From NCBI GenBank assembly GCA_000165345.1, contig CM000432.1:160001-224000 (forward strand): DNA of 64,000 bases. Direction: 5' to 3'. The notes below the pieces were generated by a model, which was not told the origin of the DNA, did no database searches, and saw only the letters and a list, made by a program, of their open reading frames with translations. Positions 2,675 to 62,487 of the stretch are shown one piece after another (positions within the stretch are counted from its first letter, which is position 1; each line of letters opens with the position of its first letter). The position numbers were made by a program, and so were the translations under genes.

Positions 2675-2886
2675 TTCATTCCTTTATTTAATTACACTTA
2701 AAAGATAAAAAAAAATCAATAATGATCAAAAAGTATTTTTCAGACCGTTTTTCACAGTCTCCCGCCATATGGGGAATAATTTTTGCATTTTTTTCCCCAA
2801 ATTAAAATAAGGAATCAAAAAAAATTCATTTTTTCACAGAAAAAGTAGTGATATATTAATAGCTATCTTTTGTGCCCTTCTAATGA

Positions 2887-3588
2887 ATGCCAAACAAATT
2901 CATTTTTAGAACAAGCTTAAAATATGCCAAAATATTGTTGGGTATACACTTAATTCAAAAATATGGGTTTAGTATATGTATTACGGATGGACCTTCAATG
3001 ATTCCAACAATAGGACCGAAGAGAGAACTTTTGCTCTATGAAAAACTTTCTATTTCTTTATCCAGAATATTTAAACTGAATGGAAATTTTCCAGTCAACA
3101 GAAATGATATAATAATTGCAAATTCAGTGGAAAATCCAGAAATATTAGTTTGCAAGAGAGTAATTGGTAAAGTAAGTTATGATTAAAAAAAAATACTTGA
3201 GATTTTTTTTTTTAATACCGAAAACAATTTTAGGAAGGAGATATTGTAACAGTATTTCCAAATTATACATTAGTATCTAAATTTAATAATTGTAATTTTA
3301 TAGATTTTATTCATAAACGTCATTCTTGTTTTCAAATGAAAATACCTCCAAATTATTTTTGGATACAAGGAGATAATTTTAATAACTCCAGAGATTCCAG
3401 AAACTATGGCCCTATTCACGAATCATTGATAATAGGAAGGGTAATCTATAAGGTAAGTAATTTTTATTATTATTACTACTACTATATTACTAATTAAAAT
3501 ATACTAGTTATGGCCGAATCCAATTTTTTCAAAATTATCTGCAATTATAAGGAGAAAAATGGATCAAATCAATACTTTAGAAAATTAA
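2887..3588 (+). CDS. Mitochondrial inner-membrane-protease-like signal peptidase (S26 family), 3 exons
   Basis: Exon 1 (2887..3171) carries the catalytic-Ser box GPSMIPT and the catalytic-Lys box VCKRVIGK, followed by a GTAAGT donor at 3172. Exon 2 (3234..3452), after a TTTTAG acceptor, encodes GDIVTVFPN and the box-E-like motif IQGDNFNNSRDSRNYGPIHESLIIGRVIYK, followed by a GTAAGT donor at 3453. Exon 3 (3508..3588) encodes LWPNPIF...*. All junctions keep the reading frame. Confidence 0.65.
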
Positions 3589-3622
3589 TATTTAGTTGTA
3601 TATAATTCAAATATAAACGAGT

Positions 3623-4219
3623 CTAAATTTCCTCCCAAGTCAGCTCGAATCCACAGATTTTGCATTTTTTCTTATAAAGACCACTTTCTGTATTAATTTT
3701 GACAGGGGGGTCGAAATCATGTTCATGGTAACTTTCTTGTTTTAACATCCTTTTCTTGTTTTCATTTTCAAGTCTTTTTTCAATCCTTAACCTTTTTTGT
3801 TCCATTTTCTTCTGTTCCTTTTCGCTTAGCTCACTCGTTATCCCGAGTCTCTTATTTATCTTCTTCTGTATTTTTCTATCTTCAGCATTTGTTGACTCAG
3901 CCAATGCTTGTTCTACGCTTCCGTATTTTTTTATTGCAGCTTCTTCAACCTGAAATTTGTAGTACAACTTCATAAATCTGTTCTTCCCATAAGAAGTTGG
4001 TTTCTTGACTATTGCAAACCCTTCTCCACTTAAATCTTGAGCACTTAATGCATAATCCTTCATTGCATTTGTCTGAGTCATTTTACTATATTCATCATCT
4101 TTCCCTTGAAAAAAGCATCTTCTACATACATATATGCCTACGCTCTTCAGAGTTTCCTCCACTGCAACTGAAAGATTATTTCCGAGGTCGCATCTACAAC
4201 TCCTACATGAGTGAGACAT
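3623..4219 (-). CDS. XPA: DNA repair protein XPA/Rad14 homologue (compact, 198 aa)
   Basis: It has a C4 zinc finger (CRSCRC...CRRC). The stretch KKPTSYGKNRFMKLYYKFQVEEAAIKKYGSVEQALAE matches the XPA core ([31 protein letters not shown]). The C-terminal HEHDFDPP...YKKKCKICGFELTWEEI matches human XPA HQHEYGPE...YRKTCTMCGHELTYEKM. The start is an ATG. Confidence 0.75.
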   Translation of the reverse strand: MSHSCRSCRCDLGNNLSVAVEETLKSVGIYVCRRCFFQGKDDEYSKMTQTNAMKDYALSAQDLSGEGFAIVKKPTSYGKNRFMKLYYKFQVEEAAIKKYGSVEQALAESTNAEDRKIQKKINKRLGITSELSEKEQKKMEQKRLRIEKRLENENKKRMLKQESYHEHDFDPPVKINTESGLYKKKCKICGFELTWEEI

Positions 4220-4600
4220 TTTTCATTATTTTCTTGATTTCTGTTTATTTCTTTTTACATTAATACTTTTTTTGGCGGTAAAGTGTTTACATGCATGTCG
4301 GCCAATTTAAAAAACATTAAGCTAATTCAATACAACTGTCAAAAAAAACCAGATTACGACCAAAAGATCACTTCTTGAGCTTTTCAAATATTATTATTCT
4401 CTTACCCTTATTAAATGATCTATTATGAAATTTTTTACGCAAGATGTAGCTAATAGTAGCAAATAAAGGTGTGGAATAATATAATAATAACTAGTTATTT
4501 GAGTTAGGATATTTATATAAATAATATTAATATAGAAACTATTAGTTCACAAATGTTTATTTTTTAATTATAATTGTAGATCAATGTACTTTGAGAAATT

Positions 4601-60313: not shown

Positions 60314-62125
60314 CTATTGCAATTCATCTAGAAGAATGATTTGTTCATAATCATTAATATAAATAAATTTATGATTGTTATGAGTTTTGAGTTGAGTAAA
60401 ATGGTCCAAATTTTCTCCATAATAGGAAACCAAAGGTGAAATTTCAATATAATTAAATAAAGAAAGTGAGAGCTCTTCAGAGATATTTAAAGCACGATTT
60501 ATTAGCTTTTTATTTAGGTTTGAAATAGCTTTTTGACAAGTTTCTGGTGAATCTTGTCCAAAAATTGACTTAACAGGAGAAAATTCATCTCTAGATACAT
60601 TAATACAATGAACTGGAATATTAGTAAATGCAAAAGAATCAAAAATGAATGTTTCCAATTTTATCCCATTAACTTCAGAAGGTTGATCAATGTAGAATTT
60701 CAAACGTGAATTATCATGATCATTCAAGTATTTTAAATAAGGTATTTTTTTTTTTGCAATATGATATGGAAATTCAAATATTTTATTAGAGATCTCTTGT
60801 ATGAATTGAAGTTTAAATAAATGTATTCCAATACTACCAAATCTAAAATTTTCTTTTTTATCCCCTAATTTATTAAGTTCTGTATATTCAATAATACAAG
60901 GTAATATATTATTTGATTTGTTCGAATCTTGAATAAATTTCTGTGCAATACTACCAATATTTTCATTAATATCTTTCTTATGAATAGTTTTTGTAGATAC
61001 CTGTAAATTTAATAGGTCAGAATAACCTATAAAAAAAGGATCACATATTTTACATAATGGATTATCAATACAATGTATAAATACATATTCAATACCTTTA
61101 TTATTCATATCATTAATTATACCTTGTTTTCTCATACAATTAAATATTCCTCCATTTCCATTTGGAGATTTTATTATTCTTAAATCTTTACTTAAAAAGA
61201 ATGAATAGTTATTATTTATATTTAAACTAGGTACAGAATCTTGTTTAAAGAAAGTAATATTTTTTAAACCAAAATTCTCATTTTCTTTAAAATACTTTTT
61301 AATAGTAGAATCATTGTTTTCTGAAGTCATAATATACAAAGGAATTTCTTTCATTTCTTTTAAATATTTAGTTTCCTTAGACTTCAAATCATCAGTATCA
61401 TGATCATAATTTTCTTTTGACACTAATCTAATCAAACTCTGTATCTTTTGACAAAAAATCTTAAAGAAACTATCTTTACTTATTTTTCCTATTGGATACA
61501 TTCCTTTTGGACCATTATAACCAAGTCTAGATCCATCTCCTCCTGACATTATTATCATTCCCACTTTTCCTTGTTTTAATTTCATAATTCCATGTTTATA
61601 TATATAATCTCTAATACTATTAGGAATATCTTCTAATTCAGTTACAAAACAAGTATTACTATTATTGCTATTATTATTATTATTATTATTATTATTATTA
61701 TTATTATCAATTTCATCATTTTTTTTATTTATACTTATCAAATCAGTTCCAATCTCTCCTTTTTTTACTTGTTCAATAACTTTTTTGATCTTTGATTCAT
61801 CTTTATCTTTATTATCTCCTAATAATCCATTCCAGTCAATTTTTTTAGGAGGAAAATATTTCATATTTAAACAACTGTCAAATTCTTCAAAATCCATATT
61901 ATCTTTTATCATTTTTTCTCTTTCTATAATATTATTATATTCTTTCATAAATCTCTCATCTCTAAAAATACTCTCTAAATCAGAATACAAATTTCTTAAC
62001 TTTTCTCTATTATATCCACTAATTTCATACTTTTCTTCTTTACTTAAATCCTCAATTAAAGCTTCTATCTCATGCATACCATACTTTGCTAAATGTTCTC
62101 TTACAAATAACTCCATAGAATTCAT
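60314..62125 (-). CDS. UAP1: UDP-N-acetylglucosamine pyrophosphorylase (UAP1 family) with a poly-Asn insertion
   Basis: The nucleotide-binding loop MSGGDGSRLGYNGPKGMYPIG corresponds to the L(A/M)GGQGTRLG motif. The central and C-terminal regions (FFKQDSVPSL, SPNGNGGIF, EYTEL, FDSFAF) fit the UAP1/AGX fold. The start is an ATG at 62125. Confidence 0.75.
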   Translation of the reverse strand: MNSMELFVREHLAKYGMHEIEALIEDLSKEEKYEISGYNREKLRNLYSDLESIFRDERFMKEYNNIIEREKMIKDNMDFEEFDSCLNMKYFPPKKIDWNGLLGDNKDKDESKIKKVIEQVKKGEIGTDLISINKKNDEIDNNNNNNNNNNNNSNNSNTCFVTELEDIPNSIRDYIYKHGIMKLKQGKVGMIIMSGGDGSRLGYNGPKGMYPIGKISKDSFFKIFCQKIQSLIRLVSKENYDHDTDDLKSKETKYLKEMKEIPLYIMTSENNDSTIKKYFKENENFGLKNITFFKQDSVPSLNINNNYSFFLSKDLRIIKSPNGNGGIFNCMRKQGIINDMNNKGIEYVFIHCIDNPLCKICDPFFIGYSDLLNLQVSTKTIHKKDINENIGSIAQKFIQDSNKSNNILPCIIEYTELNKLGDKKENFRFGSIGIHLFKLQFIQEISNKIFEFPYHIAKKKIPYLKYLNDHDNSRLKFYIDQPSEVNGIKLETFIFDSFAFTNIPVHCINVSRDEFSPVKSIFGQDSPETCQKAISNLNKKLINRALNISEELSLSLFNYIEISPLVSYYGENLDHFTQLKTHNNHKFIYINDYEQIILLDELQ

Positions 62126-62285
62126 TTTTACGTTCTTTTTTTTTTTAATTTCTCACTTCCTACCCTATTTTCTAAATTTAAGTCTTTTGTATACAAAAGC
62201 ACCACAAATCCTCTTTCTTTCTAATATATATATTCTCTCTTTCTATATATTTATCTCTTTCTTTCATTAATTCTATATCTATTTC

Positions 62286-62350
62286 AGTTCCTATATACCT
62301 CTCTTTCTATTTATCTCTCTTTCTATTTATCTCTCTTTCTATTTATCTCT
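62286..62350. repeat. CT-rich 16-nt tandem repeat (ctctctttctatttat x ~3.5) flanked by a direct repeat (ttctttcattaattctatatcta) in the UAP1/CstF-50 divergent promoter
   Basis: The array reads ctctttctatttat ctctctttctatttat ctctctttctatttat ctctctttc. The motif tttcattaattctatatcta occurs at both ~62257 and ~62361. Confidence 0.7.
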
Positions 62351-62459
62351 CTTTCTTTTCTTTCATTAATTCTATATCTACTTCTCTTTCTATATACCTC
62401 TATTTCTCTCTCTTATACCAATAATATTTTCCATGCTCATTTTTAAGATCACGCACATA

Positions 62460-62487
62460 GCGGCGCCGGCGGGAAAATCCGGTACCC
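62460..62487. promoter_or_regulatory. GC island with E2F-like GGCGCC/GGCGGGAAAA motif in the divergent UAP1/CstF-50 promoter
   Basis: gcggcgccggcgggaaaatccggtaccc is the most GC-rich 28-mer in this AT-rich window. It lies 280 bp upstream of the CstF-50-like ATG and ~340 bp upstream of the UAP1 ATG on the other strand. Confidence 0.5.

Follow-up and report, generated by a model that had tools for sequence, protein, structure and literature searches.

Short GC-rich words stand out ahead of the genes in a 64,000-nucleotide stretch of Cryptosporidium parvum DNA (the window), which holds 24 genes at a G+C content of 29.8%, close to the ~70% AT stated in a preliminary description of this locus. That description likened the words to E2F/DP sites, which raises the question whether they are genuine promoter elements and which protein would read them.

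An E2F-like upstream motif was first noted in C. parvum by Bankier 2003 and Mullapudi 2007, and an E2F/DP-type motif is the most abundant upstream motif published for this species. Together with Oberstaller 2013/2014 and Xiao 2025, these studies place the motif genome-wide, beyond replication genes, and as dominant in open chromatin (ATAC-seq, Xiao 2025); in sporozoite ATAC-seq peaks, E2F is the top motif, followed by poly-T (bioRxiv 10.1101/2025.01.17.633476). Oberstaller 2013 keeps two E2F-like families separate, motif 3 ([C/G]GCGC[G/C]) and motif 4 (GGCGGG), both overrepresented genome-wide (PMC3734150). An E2F motif lies upstream in 161 of 200 co-expression clusters (PMC4117751), and Figure 5 of that study classes it as read by a non-AP2 protein, outside the AP2-bound set. 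Among apicomplexan genera, only Cryptosporidium is reported to retain E2F and DP winged-helix factors, with two E2F and two DP genes (PMC12246861), none of which lies within the window. OrthoMCL lists no apicomplexan pRB orthologue (PMC3734150), and according to a 2025 review most regulatory components are unvalidated.

Distribution of the motif

The window corresponds to chromosome-scale assemblies of C. parvum, to which gene products were matched by exact sequence, and the annotated gene map was used to define three classes of DNA, namely promoter-containing intergenic DNA (10.4 kb, 17 regions), genic DNA (52 kb) and convergent 3'/3' spacers (1.1 kb). We searched for a strict pattern (TTTSSCGS, both strands) and for a relaxed core (GGCGS or SGCGCS), with 300 dinucleotide-preserving shuffles of the promoter regions as background model. 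The strict pattern has 17 matches at 14 loci on both strands of the whole window, and every match falls into one of 12 of the 17 promoter-containing regions. The strict boxes are as follows (strand where assigned):

4271..4282, + strand: TTTGGCGGTAAA, divergent XPA / 2430-aa gene region; XPA ATG at 52 bp, other ATG at 330 bp
12025..12036: TTTGGCGGGAAA, full two-sided 12-bp box; TAF1 ATG 122 bp downstream
26236..26247, - strand: TTAGCGGCAAAA (TTTGCCGC on the minus strand); PNO ATG 267 bp downstream
34397..34406, + strand: TTTGCCGCCT; 427-aa gene 318 bp downstream
35471..35482, - strand: GTTGGCGCCAAA, GGCGCC palindromic variant; ESF2 191 bp downstream
36876..36886, - strand: TGGCGGGAAAA (TTTTCCCGCC on the NAP sense strand), divergent region; NAP ATG 108 bp downstream
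41281..41304: CGGCGCC ... TTGCCGCCAAAG, double box in the divergent Rpp14 / Kazal region
44709..44720: TTTCCCGCCAAA, two-sided 12-bp box; prefoldin/UXT ATG 241 bp downstream
44941..44950, + strand: TTTTCCCGCC, second UXT box, at -474
51249..51258, - strand: TACCGCCAAA; TOP2 ATG 589 bp downstream; forms a module with TGCATGCATGCA (51296) and TACCGGTA (51319)
57271..57280, - strand: TGGCGGGAAA; SERF/zf-met2 ATG 320 bp downstream; only ~40 bp beyond the TOP2 stop codon
59491..59501, - strand: TTCCCGCCAAA; Yip1 ATG 165 bp downstream
60187..60209: GGCGCG ... TTTGCCGCCAAAG, double box; Yip1 860-873 bp downstream; ~110 bp beyond the stop of the UDPGP-family gene
62460..62477, - strand: GCGGCGCCGGCGGGAAAA, 14-nt G+C run in which a GGCGCC box is fused with a GGCGGGAAAA box; divergent UDPGP / WD40 region

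Relaxed boxes and near-matches were found at the following positions, the last being an exception by location:

2760..2767: TCCCGCCA, relaxed, without T/A tract; divergent DPH6 / signal-peptidase region
19251..19275: TGGCGCCA ... CGGGCGCGCC, palindromic-core boxes, then GGCCGGTA; NIP7 223-239 bp downstream
22369..22378, + strand: TTAGCGCGGA, near-match (TTTAGCGC); sole GC island before the 938-aa gene
25403..25408: GGGCGG, relaxed; 1.68-kb divergent 680-aa gene / PNO region
40380..40386, + strand: TTGGCGC, relaxed; peroxiredoxin 195 bp downstream
46247..46257, + strand: TTTGGGCGGGC, relaxed; divergent ASF1 / 1439-aa gene region
59774..59780: GCCCGCC, relaxed; Yip1 447 bp downstream
32636..32648: CGGCGAAGGCGCC, GC island in the convergent PNO / 427-aa gene spacer

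All strings quoted in the preliminary description occur in the sequence, and its positions for TTTGGCGGGAAA (12025), TGGCGGGAAA (57271 and 36876), TTTCCCGCC (44709) and GCGGCGCCGGCGGGAAAA (62460) are exact. Other strings exist but had been slightly misplaced: the second TTTCCCGCC lies at 44942 rather than 44941, GCCGCCAAAG at 41296 and 60201 rather than 41294 and 60198, and the NIP7 pair consists of TGGCGCCA at 19251 and GGGCGCGCC at 19267-19275 rather than spanning 19264-19288. Several variants (GGCGGGAA, GGCGCC/TGGCGCCA, GCCGCCAAA and GGGCGCGCC) had been pooled.

Shuffled promoter regions yielded 0.54 +/- 0.72 strict matches and never more than 3 over 300 shuffles, as compared to the 17 observed. 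Genic DNA contains none in 52 kb on both strands (1.67 expected), and the convergent spacers contain none versus ~1.9 expected, in a control of only 1.1 kb that is underpowered alone. Unbiased k-mer ranking likewise recovers the motif, as the top 8-mers include GGCGGGAA, TCCCGCCA and CCGCCAAA. The commonest 8-mer is GGCGGGAA (7 observed, 0.04-0.10 expected), and GGCGCC (4 observed, 0.25 expected) represents a palindromic class that is enriched separately from it. A relaxed-core box is present in 16 of the 17 promoter regions and a near-match in the 17th, which bears out the claim that nearly every such region is marked; cores of the published upstream motif ([C/G]GCGC[G/C] or GGCGGG) are accordingly found in 16-17 of 17. 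Relaxed-core clusters number 2.12 per kb in promoter regions, 0.17 in genic DNA and 0.88, from a single site, in convergent spacers. The motif is confined to promoter-containing intergenic DNA. This enrichment stands despite a lower G+C content of promoter regions as compared to genes (23% versus 31%) and an equal total CpG density (10.05 versus 10.11 per kb). CpG islands or generic GC-rich promoters were rejected as a description, since neither G+C nor CpG rises over hundreds of bp and the islands are just 5-14 nt long.

The distance from a site to the nearest start codon has a median of 242 bp (interquartile range 172-446, full range 55-873), so that the 60-400 bp proposed earlier fits most but not all sites. 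Positional bias is evident for promoter regions versus genic DNA, but not for the ATG-proximal half of tandem intergenic regions, where the mean relative position is 0.59. In addition, two boxes lie about 40-115 bp from the stop codon of the upstream gene (57273, 60198). For both reasons, assignment of the boxes to the downstream gene is only assumed. As to orientation, GGCGGGA sites in tandem regions read in the same direction as the downstream gene in 5 of 5 cases (P about 0.06).

The other dominant intergenic motif of the window is the ApiAP2_1 motif TGCATGCA (CATGCA, 22 observed versus 1.35 expected), which often lies at most about 50 bp from an E2F-like box (51296, 60211). It differs in being bound by AP2 domains in protein-binding microarrays (PMC3734150, PMC4117751) and, unlike the E2F-like box, it has a copy in each of the two long convergent spacers (18142, 32605), that at 32605 being conserved. 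The double box at 60187..60209 is flanked by TACCGGTA (60175) and TGCATGCA (60211), and CCGGTA directly follows the box at 62460..62477.

Architecture of the sites and the genes behind them

Three positions left unconstrained by the search are nevertheless biased: of the 14 sites, 11 have G or C at position 9, 11 have A at position 10 and 9 have A at position 11, extending the site to TTTSSCGSCAA. These flank bases therefore indicate the 12-bp T-flank / CG-core / A-flank architecture of E2F/DP sites, in support of the likeness noted earlier. The consensus is TTT[G/C][G/C]CG[C/G]C-AA with asymmetric (GGCGGGAA) and palindromic (GGCGCC) variants; two-sided 12-mers number three (TTTGGCGGGAAA, TTTCCCGCCAAA, TTTGCCGCCAAA). 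The island in the convergent spacer (32636..32648) has flanks of opposite polarity, AA-core-TT.

Judged by sequence, the 14 loci matching TTTSSCGS qualify as E2F/DP sites. Like the canonical animal and plant site (TTTSSCGC; Arabidopsis TTTCCCGCC / TTTGGCGGG), they have a CG core of 6 bp between a T-rich 5' flank and an A-rich 3' flank, are used in either orientation, lie in proximal promoters and are frequently shared by divergent genes. The Arabidopsis TTTCCCGCC E2F site and the structure of E2F4-DP2 on DNA (Zheng et al. 1999) are both cited in PMC3734150. The genes downstream are functionally unrelated: TAF1, NIP7, ESF2, NAP, PNO (the PFOR-fusion gene), peroxiredoxin and a Kazal-domain protein, and further prefoldin/UXT, TOP2, SERF/zf-met2, Yip1, a UDPGP-family enzyme and a WD40 protein. 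Therefore, the motif is not limited to replication genes, as had been proposed; a restriction to a cell-cycle or DNA-replication regulon is absent from the window, where boxes also precede metabolic, trafficking, ribosome-biogenesis, secreted-protein and chaperone genes. The E2F/DP sites of animals and plants define a regulon for cell cycle and DNA synthesis under Rb-family pocket proteins, whereas the boxes described here occur at nearly every promoter and their binding by parasite proteins is putative. Their spread departs from the classical Rb regulon, while the boxes still fit the definition of the site in DNA.

Conservation across Cryptosporidium

Synteny of the locus is perfect in five other Cryptosporidium species, and boxes recur within the same intergenic regions across five syntenic species. 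Three-way identity between C. parvum, C. ubiquitum and C. canis reaches 53% in motif columns as compared to 29% in the intergenic background (P = 8.6e-5), and the motif is under purifying selection across species. The NAP box (36876..36886) is identical in 8 of 8 columns in these three species and forms a clear footprint in sequence that has otherwise diverged, C. canis with its 45% GC included; it lies at -113 to -124 in four species, about 115 bp before the ATG, and C. xiaoi and C. ryanae carry a TTGCCGCCA box about 30 nt away. The PNO box is found at -260 to -272 in three species; C. ubiquitum and C. canis have it at the C. parvum position, ahead of a block that is nearly identical in all three. 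The box at 34397 keeps its GGCGG core in C. ubiquitum and C. canis, GGCGCCAA of the ESF2 box (35471) occurs in C. parvum and both of these close relatives, although the aligner had misplaced it, and the UXT box at 44709 keeps TTTGGCGGG in five species. In the Rpp14 / Kazal region, C. ubiquitum and C. canis likewise have a box, as does C. ryanae. The second UXT box (44941) is C. parvum-specific, being missing from C. ubiquitum and C. canis, and the island in the convergent spacer (32636..32648) is not conserved in either species.

Orthologous boxes switch class from one species to another: at NAP, C. parvum has TTTCCCGCC where C. xiaoi has TTTGCCGCCAAA, and the Rpp14 / Kazal site reads GGCGGC, AGCGCC or GGCGCC in three species. 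The 21 kb of syntenic locus in C. muris hold neither TTTSSCGS nor GGCGG and show GCGC-core islands only, without T-tract, and therefore the consensus varies within the genus.

Discussion

We consider it probable (roughly 0.78) that the GC islands represent E2F/DP-type cis-regulatory elements of promoters, with E2F/DP as the proposed reader. Chance or composition, by which GC words simply look conspicuous in AT-rich DNA, could apply to a list compiled by eye from loosely alike strings, but has a negligible probability: it is refuted by 17 matches versus 0.54 expected and at most 3 in any shuffle, by the lack of matches in 52 kb of more GC-rich genic DNA, and by repetition of the pattern in five other species. 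It is hardly more credible that the islands owe their effect to DNA structure or composition, e.g. by positioning or excluding nucleosomes or as origin-like elements, without a sequence-specific reader. Many boxes do adjoin long poly(dA:dT) tracts (44709, 44942, 4271), and poly-T ranks second among the motifs of ATAC-seq peaks; yet conservation is per nucleotide and motif-specific while flanks diverge, total CpG and G+C lack intergenic enrichment, and the enriched class does not consist of G-only or C-only runs.

That the boxes are functional but read by another protein, such as a C2H2 zinc-finger, an Sp1-like GC-box binder or an uncharacterised protein, with a coincidental likeness to E2F sites, is an unlikely alternative deserving more weight. 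Some islands are closer to Sp1 GC-boxes (GGGCGG at 25403, GGGCGGGC at 46250), the C. muris islands have a GCGC core without T-tract, and the searchable literature holds no Cryptosporidium E2F/DP binding data by ChIP, EMSA or binding microarray. Against this, T-tract, 6-bp CG core and A-tract together make up a specific E2F/DP heterodimer footprint, and we take GGCGGGAA to fit the E2F4/E2F6 matrices of metazoans as well as the Arabidopsis TTTCCCGCC site. Moreover, this genus kept E2F/DP, whereas other apicomplexans have neither the factors nor such motif dominance (PMC3734150, PMC12246861), and the reported C. parvum AP2 binding motifs (TGCAT, CACACA, G-box) are all unlike the box (PMC4117751). 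A different question is whether two elements have been lumped, an asymmetric GGCGGGAA(A) and a palindromic GGCGCC/SGCGCS, read by different E2F/DP pairs with different outputs. We regard this as a tentative refinement, which does not exclude the E2F/DP reading. The two classes are separately enriched (7 versus 0.10 and 4 versus 0.25 expected), Oberstaller 2013 splits them as motifs 3 and 4, C. muris has the GCGC class only, and GGCGGGA follows the sense strand of the downstream gene in tandem regions, whereas a palindrome cannot be oriented. Still, that orientation bias reaches only P about 0.06, and the class switching at the orthologous NAP and Rpp14 / Kazal sites suggests that the classes are interchangeable.

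The interpretation given in the preliminary description is correct but already published: motifs 3 and 4 of Oberstaller 2013 agree with ours in organism, sequences, upstream location and the conclusion of a genome-wide motif bound to no single functional class, without essential difference, so that the window is a local instance. The E2F motif of Xiao et al. 2025 occurs as one box per promoter or open-chromatin peak, in bidirectional promoters and short same-strand spacers, and inside polycistronic transcripts; the box lying 40 bp behind the stop codon of TOP2 (57273) fits the same-strand-spacer pattern. Our additions are minor, that is a cross-species footprint, the GCGC-only variant of C. 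muris and a co-occurring CCGGTA box, along with a per-site map, shuffle statistics and a consensus extended to 12 bp for this locus; Oberstaller 2013 contains neither C. muris nor footprinting analysis.

Taken together, we infer that E2F/DP is probably the protein binding the boxes, where its binding may activate or repress transcription. Most likely, E2F/DP heterodimers would bind one to three boxes per promoter, often beside poly(dA:dT) tracts, where they would help to open chromatin, and the variant classes may be read by different E2F/DP pairs. E2F/DP would thereby drive transcription of most genes of the parasite, including both members of a divergent pair.

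Distribution of E2F-like boxes in the window

Gene calls were taken from chromosome-scale C. parvum assemblies, for example GCA_015245375.1 (record CP044419.1, ~159.9-223.9 kb), via exact protein sequence matches; exact-sequence look-up of the TOP2 protein returned no record, and gene calls were drawn here from neighbouring look-ups. The window (29.8% G+C) comprises 24 genes (genic DNA 52,150 bp, 31.3% GC), 17 promoter regions (intergenic regions with a gene 5' end on at least one side; 10,379 bp in total, 23.3% GC), of which 7 are divergent and 10 tandem, and six convergent 3'/3' spacers (1,131 bp in total). 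Where checked, the gene labels of the preliminary description agree with Pfam for the UDPGP family, WD40 (with a weak CstF1-dimerisation match) and SERF/zf-met2, and the labels TAF1, NIP7, NAP, ASF1, TOP2, Kazal and prefoldin are backed by protein look-ups or annotation. Its 'Bet5-like' gene is present, but is annotated instead with a weak match to RNase P Rpp14.

Searching both strands for the strict form of the E2F-like box, TTTSSCGS, revealed 17 matches at 14 loci, every one of which lies in a promoter region, with none in genic DNA or convergent spacers. Dinucleotide-preserving shuffling of the promoter regions (n=300) yielded 0.54 +/- 0.72 matches with a maximum of 3, as compared to the 17 observed, which together with the replication in other species excludes chance as the origin of the boxes. 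Genic DNA is, if anything, depleted (0 observed versus 1.67 expected from shuffles), and GGCGGGAA occurs 7 times versus 0.04 expected. Unbiased k-mer ranking under a second-order Markov model places GGCGGGAA, TCCCGCCA and CCGCCAAA among the best 8-mers and also recovers an AP2-type CATGCA/TGCATGCA motif and poly(A). The strict site is present in 12 of the 17 promoter regions and the relaxed core (GGCGS or SGCGCS) in 16; the 17th, located 5' of the 938-aa gene, carries the near-match TTTAGCGCGG. Clusters of the relaxed core reach 2.12/kb in promoter regions versus 0.17/kb in genic DNA, and the convergent spacers contain one site. The absence of strict matches from the convergent spacers is consistent with promoter confinement, but these spacers cover 1.1 kb only; the convergent spacers of five other species likewise contain no strict match, being orthologous rather than independent. 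All strings quoted in the preliminary description were recovered, at most 13 nt from where it had placed them, and counts, shuffles and other species confirm its observation of boxes upstream of genes.

A CpG-island effect was ruled out because intergenic DNA is lower in G+C than the genes, while total CpG density is equal in both. Non-coding RNAs were considered as a source of the GC islands and rejected, as Rfam (gathering thresholds) and tRNA scans of the whole window returned nothing; the same holds for a permissive Rfam scan of the 1.68-kb region 5' of PNO, the PFOR-fusion gene.

Anatomy and position of the boxes

Alignment of the 14 strict loci revealed G or C at position 9 in 11 cases, A at position 10 in 11 and A at position 11 in 9, and therefore the consensus reads TTT[G/C][G/C]CG[C/G]C-AA. 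Three complete two-sided 12-mers are present:

12025: TTTGGCGGGAAA
44709: TTTCCCGCCAAA
60198: TTTGCCGCCAAA

Consensus and 12-mers have the same shape as the E2F/DP heterodimer site described in PMC3734150; GTTGGCGCCAAA is a further sequence of the E2F-like type. Measured to the nearest ATG, the boxes lie at a median of 242 bp, with an interquartile range of 172-446 bp and extremes of 55 and 873 bp. Boxes in tandem regions show no bias towards the ATG (mean relative position 0.59), and the enrichment 5' of start codons is therefore limited to the region level: it holds for which region carries a box, but not for the place of the box inside the region. All five GGCGGGA sites in tandem regions are oriented in the sense direction of the gene that follows (P about 0.06), an orientation preference that is suggestive only. 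An extended AAAGTG 3' flank, which follows four boxes in the window, was discarded because it is unseen in other species; a GTCAAA enrichment was weak and did not replicate across species.

Two boxes are found very near the stop codon of the upstream gene on the same strand:

57273: box ~40 bp past TOP2, 320 bp from the downstream ATG
60187-60209: double box ~110 bp past the UDPGP-family gene, about 870 bp from the downstream ATG

Long 5' UTRs or unannotated transcripts would fit these positions, as would internal promoters of polycistronic units such as those described in Xiao 2025.

The convergent spacer between PNO and the 427-aa gene harbours CGGCGAAGGCGCC at 32636-32648, in which the polarity of the flanks is reversed (AA-core-TT). 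This island is absent in C. ubiquitum and C. canis, and the adjoining TCCACATGAATGCATGCAA is conserved. The top two motifs 5' of antisense lncRNAs are E2F/DP1 and ApiAP2_1 (PMC7840661); antisense lncRNA promoters of this kind would readily account for regulatory motifs in 3' spacers.

Conservation in other Cryptosporidium species

For comparison we used perfectly syntenic 21-kb loci of C. ubiquitum, C. canis, C. xiaoi, C. ryanae and C. muris, reached through the NAP orthologues. In the four intestinal-clade species, TTTSSCGS density is 0.63-1.75/kb in intergenic versus 0-0.13/kb in genic DNA, as computed after correction of one merged C. canis gene model. A box precedes the NAP ATG by 113-124 bp in four species and PNO by 260-272 bp in three; one is also found 5' of UXT, the prefoldin-like gene, in five species and between Rpp14 and Kazal in four. 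In the NAP alignment, GATTTTCCCGC forms a conserved island amid diverged sequence, the 45%-GC C. canis genome included; C. xiaoi and C. ryanae carry TTGCCGCCA ~30 nt away in its place. Across eight promoter regions aligned between C. parvum, C. ubiquitum and C. canis, three-way identity amounts to 53% in motif columns versus 29% in the background (odds ratio 2.8, P = 8.6e-5). The figure of 53% is too low, since the ESF2 GGCGCCAA box, present in all three species, was misplaced by the aligner. In the aligned stretch, C. ubiquitum and C. canis both share six of the seven C. parvum sites; of the three species, only C. parvum carries the second UXT box (44942).

The deposited C. canis model fuses ASF1 and prefoldin/UXT into one 357-aa product (936-2690 of the syntenic locus L012). 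By tblastn, ASF1 lies at about 1456-2139 and UXT starts from about 2515, placing the conserved TTTTGGCGGGAAA box at 2434 inside the true ASF1-UXT intergenic gap rather than in an intron. The annotations of C. canis, C. ryanae and C. muris lack Rpp14. Two further conserved elements were observed beside E2F-like boxes:

26252-26326 (+): 75-nt block directly 3' of the PNO box, CAAACATGTCGAGGGAGGGGACACATTGAGATTTTTGACTTCTCG...GAATCGAGAATGAGGGAA
36830-36850 (-): second NAP box, TGTCAAAAYTTACAAA, on the NAP-ATG side of the E2F-like box (~45 nt downstream, ~25 nt beyond the 3' end of that box)

The PNO block is near-identical in C. parvum, C. ubiquitum and GC-rich C. canis, amid diverged surroundings, and holds a G-box (GAGGGAGGGGA), inverted GTCAAA/TTTGAC boxes and a 7-codon upstream ORF from 26257. 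It has no Rfam match, and a structured RNA was rejected, since its folding is no more stable than that of shuffled sequence (z = 0.27); probably, it represents a composite promoter or 5'-UTR element. TGTCAAAAYTTACAAA is shared by C. parvum, C. ubiquitum and C. canis, with partial conservation in C. xiaoi and C. ryanae; it could represent the region of transcription start or the site of a different factor.

The C. muris locus (L015, 1-20984) contains neither TTTSSCGS nor intergenic GGCGG/CCGCC. GCGC is 13-fold denser in its intergenic than in its genic DNA (1.73/kb versus 0.13/kb; 9 versus 2 matches) at equal CpG density, and the top 6-mers include AGCGCC. Contexts of GCGC are, for example, TTAGCGCCT and ATTGGCGCCCT, and TAGCGCCT is a box of the C. 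muris type. Intestinal species use GGCGGGAA and GGCGCC with T/A flanks, and gastric C. muris, over these 21 kb, only a short (A/T)GCGC(C/G) core; this small sample suggests a lineage shift of the preferred box variant.

CCGGTA and AP2-type motifs

A CCGGTA box is found nine times in intergenic DNA versus once in 52 kb of genic DNA, and a (T)GCATGCA motif of AP2 type equals the E2F-like box in the strength of its intergenic enrichment (CATGCA, 22 observed versus 1.35 expected):

19283, 25710, 32549, 37212, 51319-51326, 60175-60182, 62479: CCGGTA box (palindromic form TACCGGTA at 51319 and 60175)
18142, 25735-25780, 32605, 51296-51307, 60211 and others: AP2-type motif

Four CCGGTA copies lie at most 70 bp from an E2F-like box. 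The intergenic bias of CCGGTA recurs in five other species, with the 32549 copy kept in C. ubiquitum, and the motif table of a 2025 review (PMC12246861) does not list CCGGTA among its named C. parvum families; beside the E2F-like box, it could be an undescribed, putative partner site. Unlike the E2F-like box, the full AP2-type octamer also occurs in both long convergent spacers (18142, 32605). C. ubiquitum retains the copy at 32605 and C. canis has it almost intact (ATACATGCAA); these spacer copies may be antisense lncRNA promoters (compare PMC7840661). ACACGT is observed 7 times in intergenic DNA versus 0.74 expected; in C. ryanae and C. muris, too, every ACACGTG is intergenic. Two ACACGTG copies (E-box-like), ~30 bp apart, adjoin GGGCGG at 25340-25400 in the 1.68-kb divergent region.

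Interpretation and relation to previous work

An E2F-like promoter motif is already well described in C. parvum. As cited in PMC3734150, it was found overrepresented in chromosome 6 non-coding DNA (Bankier 2003) and 5' of replication and glycolysis genes (Mullapudi 2007). Oberstaller 2013 (PMC3734150) defined the E2F-like families [C/G]GCGC[G/C] and GGCGGG, and Oberstaller 2014 (PMC4117751) found the E2F motif upstream of 161 of 200 co-expression clusters and classed it as read by a non-AP2 protein, apart from the motifs that AP2 domains bind. E2F ranks first among the motifs of sporozoite ATAC-seq peaks (Xiao 2025, bioRxiv 10.1101/2025.01.17.633476), and the 2025 review ranks it first in abundance among C. 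parvum binding-site motifs and lists two E2F and two DP genes (PMC12246861); Cryptosporidium is the sole apicomplexan genus reported to retain these factors (PMC3734150, PMC12246861). The E2F genes (cgd1_1560, cgd6_1430) and the DP genes lie outside the window. The existence of the factors and the coincidence of the motif with open chromatin are thus taken from the literature. The same review stresses a lack of functional validation, and we found no report of direct E2F/DP binding or genetics in Cryptosporidium. Our additions to the searchable literature are small, namely the cross-species footprint at the locus, an analysis that Oberstaller 2013 does not contain, the GCGC-only variant of C. 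muris and the co-occurrence with CCGGTA. Since the significance of the motif is already recognised in the field, the window provides a clean local illustration and a cross-species footprint only.

The motif is real, and its E2F/DP shape, confinement to promoters and conservation support its initial reading as an E2F/DP-type promoter motif. The best-supported explanation is E2F/DP binding to the boxes, which would serve as general promoter elements; a promoter typically has one to three of them, divergent gene pairs share them, and poly(dA:dT) often lies beside them. We infer both E2F/DP as the binder and the direction of the effect. That another GC-box factor reads the boxes appears quite unlikely. 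The idea of a purely structural role is contradicted by conservation that is specific to the motif and by G+C and CpG contents that are not enriched. The GGCGGGAA and GGCGCC variants may plausibly be targets of different E2F/DP pairs; however, orthologous sites change from one variant to the other. It is rather doubtful, albeit conceivable, that the boxes represent a near-universal core or opening element rather than a regulon marker, with one per promoter or bidirectional pair and a preferred variant that drifted within the genus.

If the variant shift in C. muris holds genome-wide, the DNA-binding specificity of E2F/DP would have co-evolved with thousands of sites. The motif seems to mark most Cryptosporidium promoters and would therefore be central to transcription control in the parasite, as well as useful in the design of expression cassettes.
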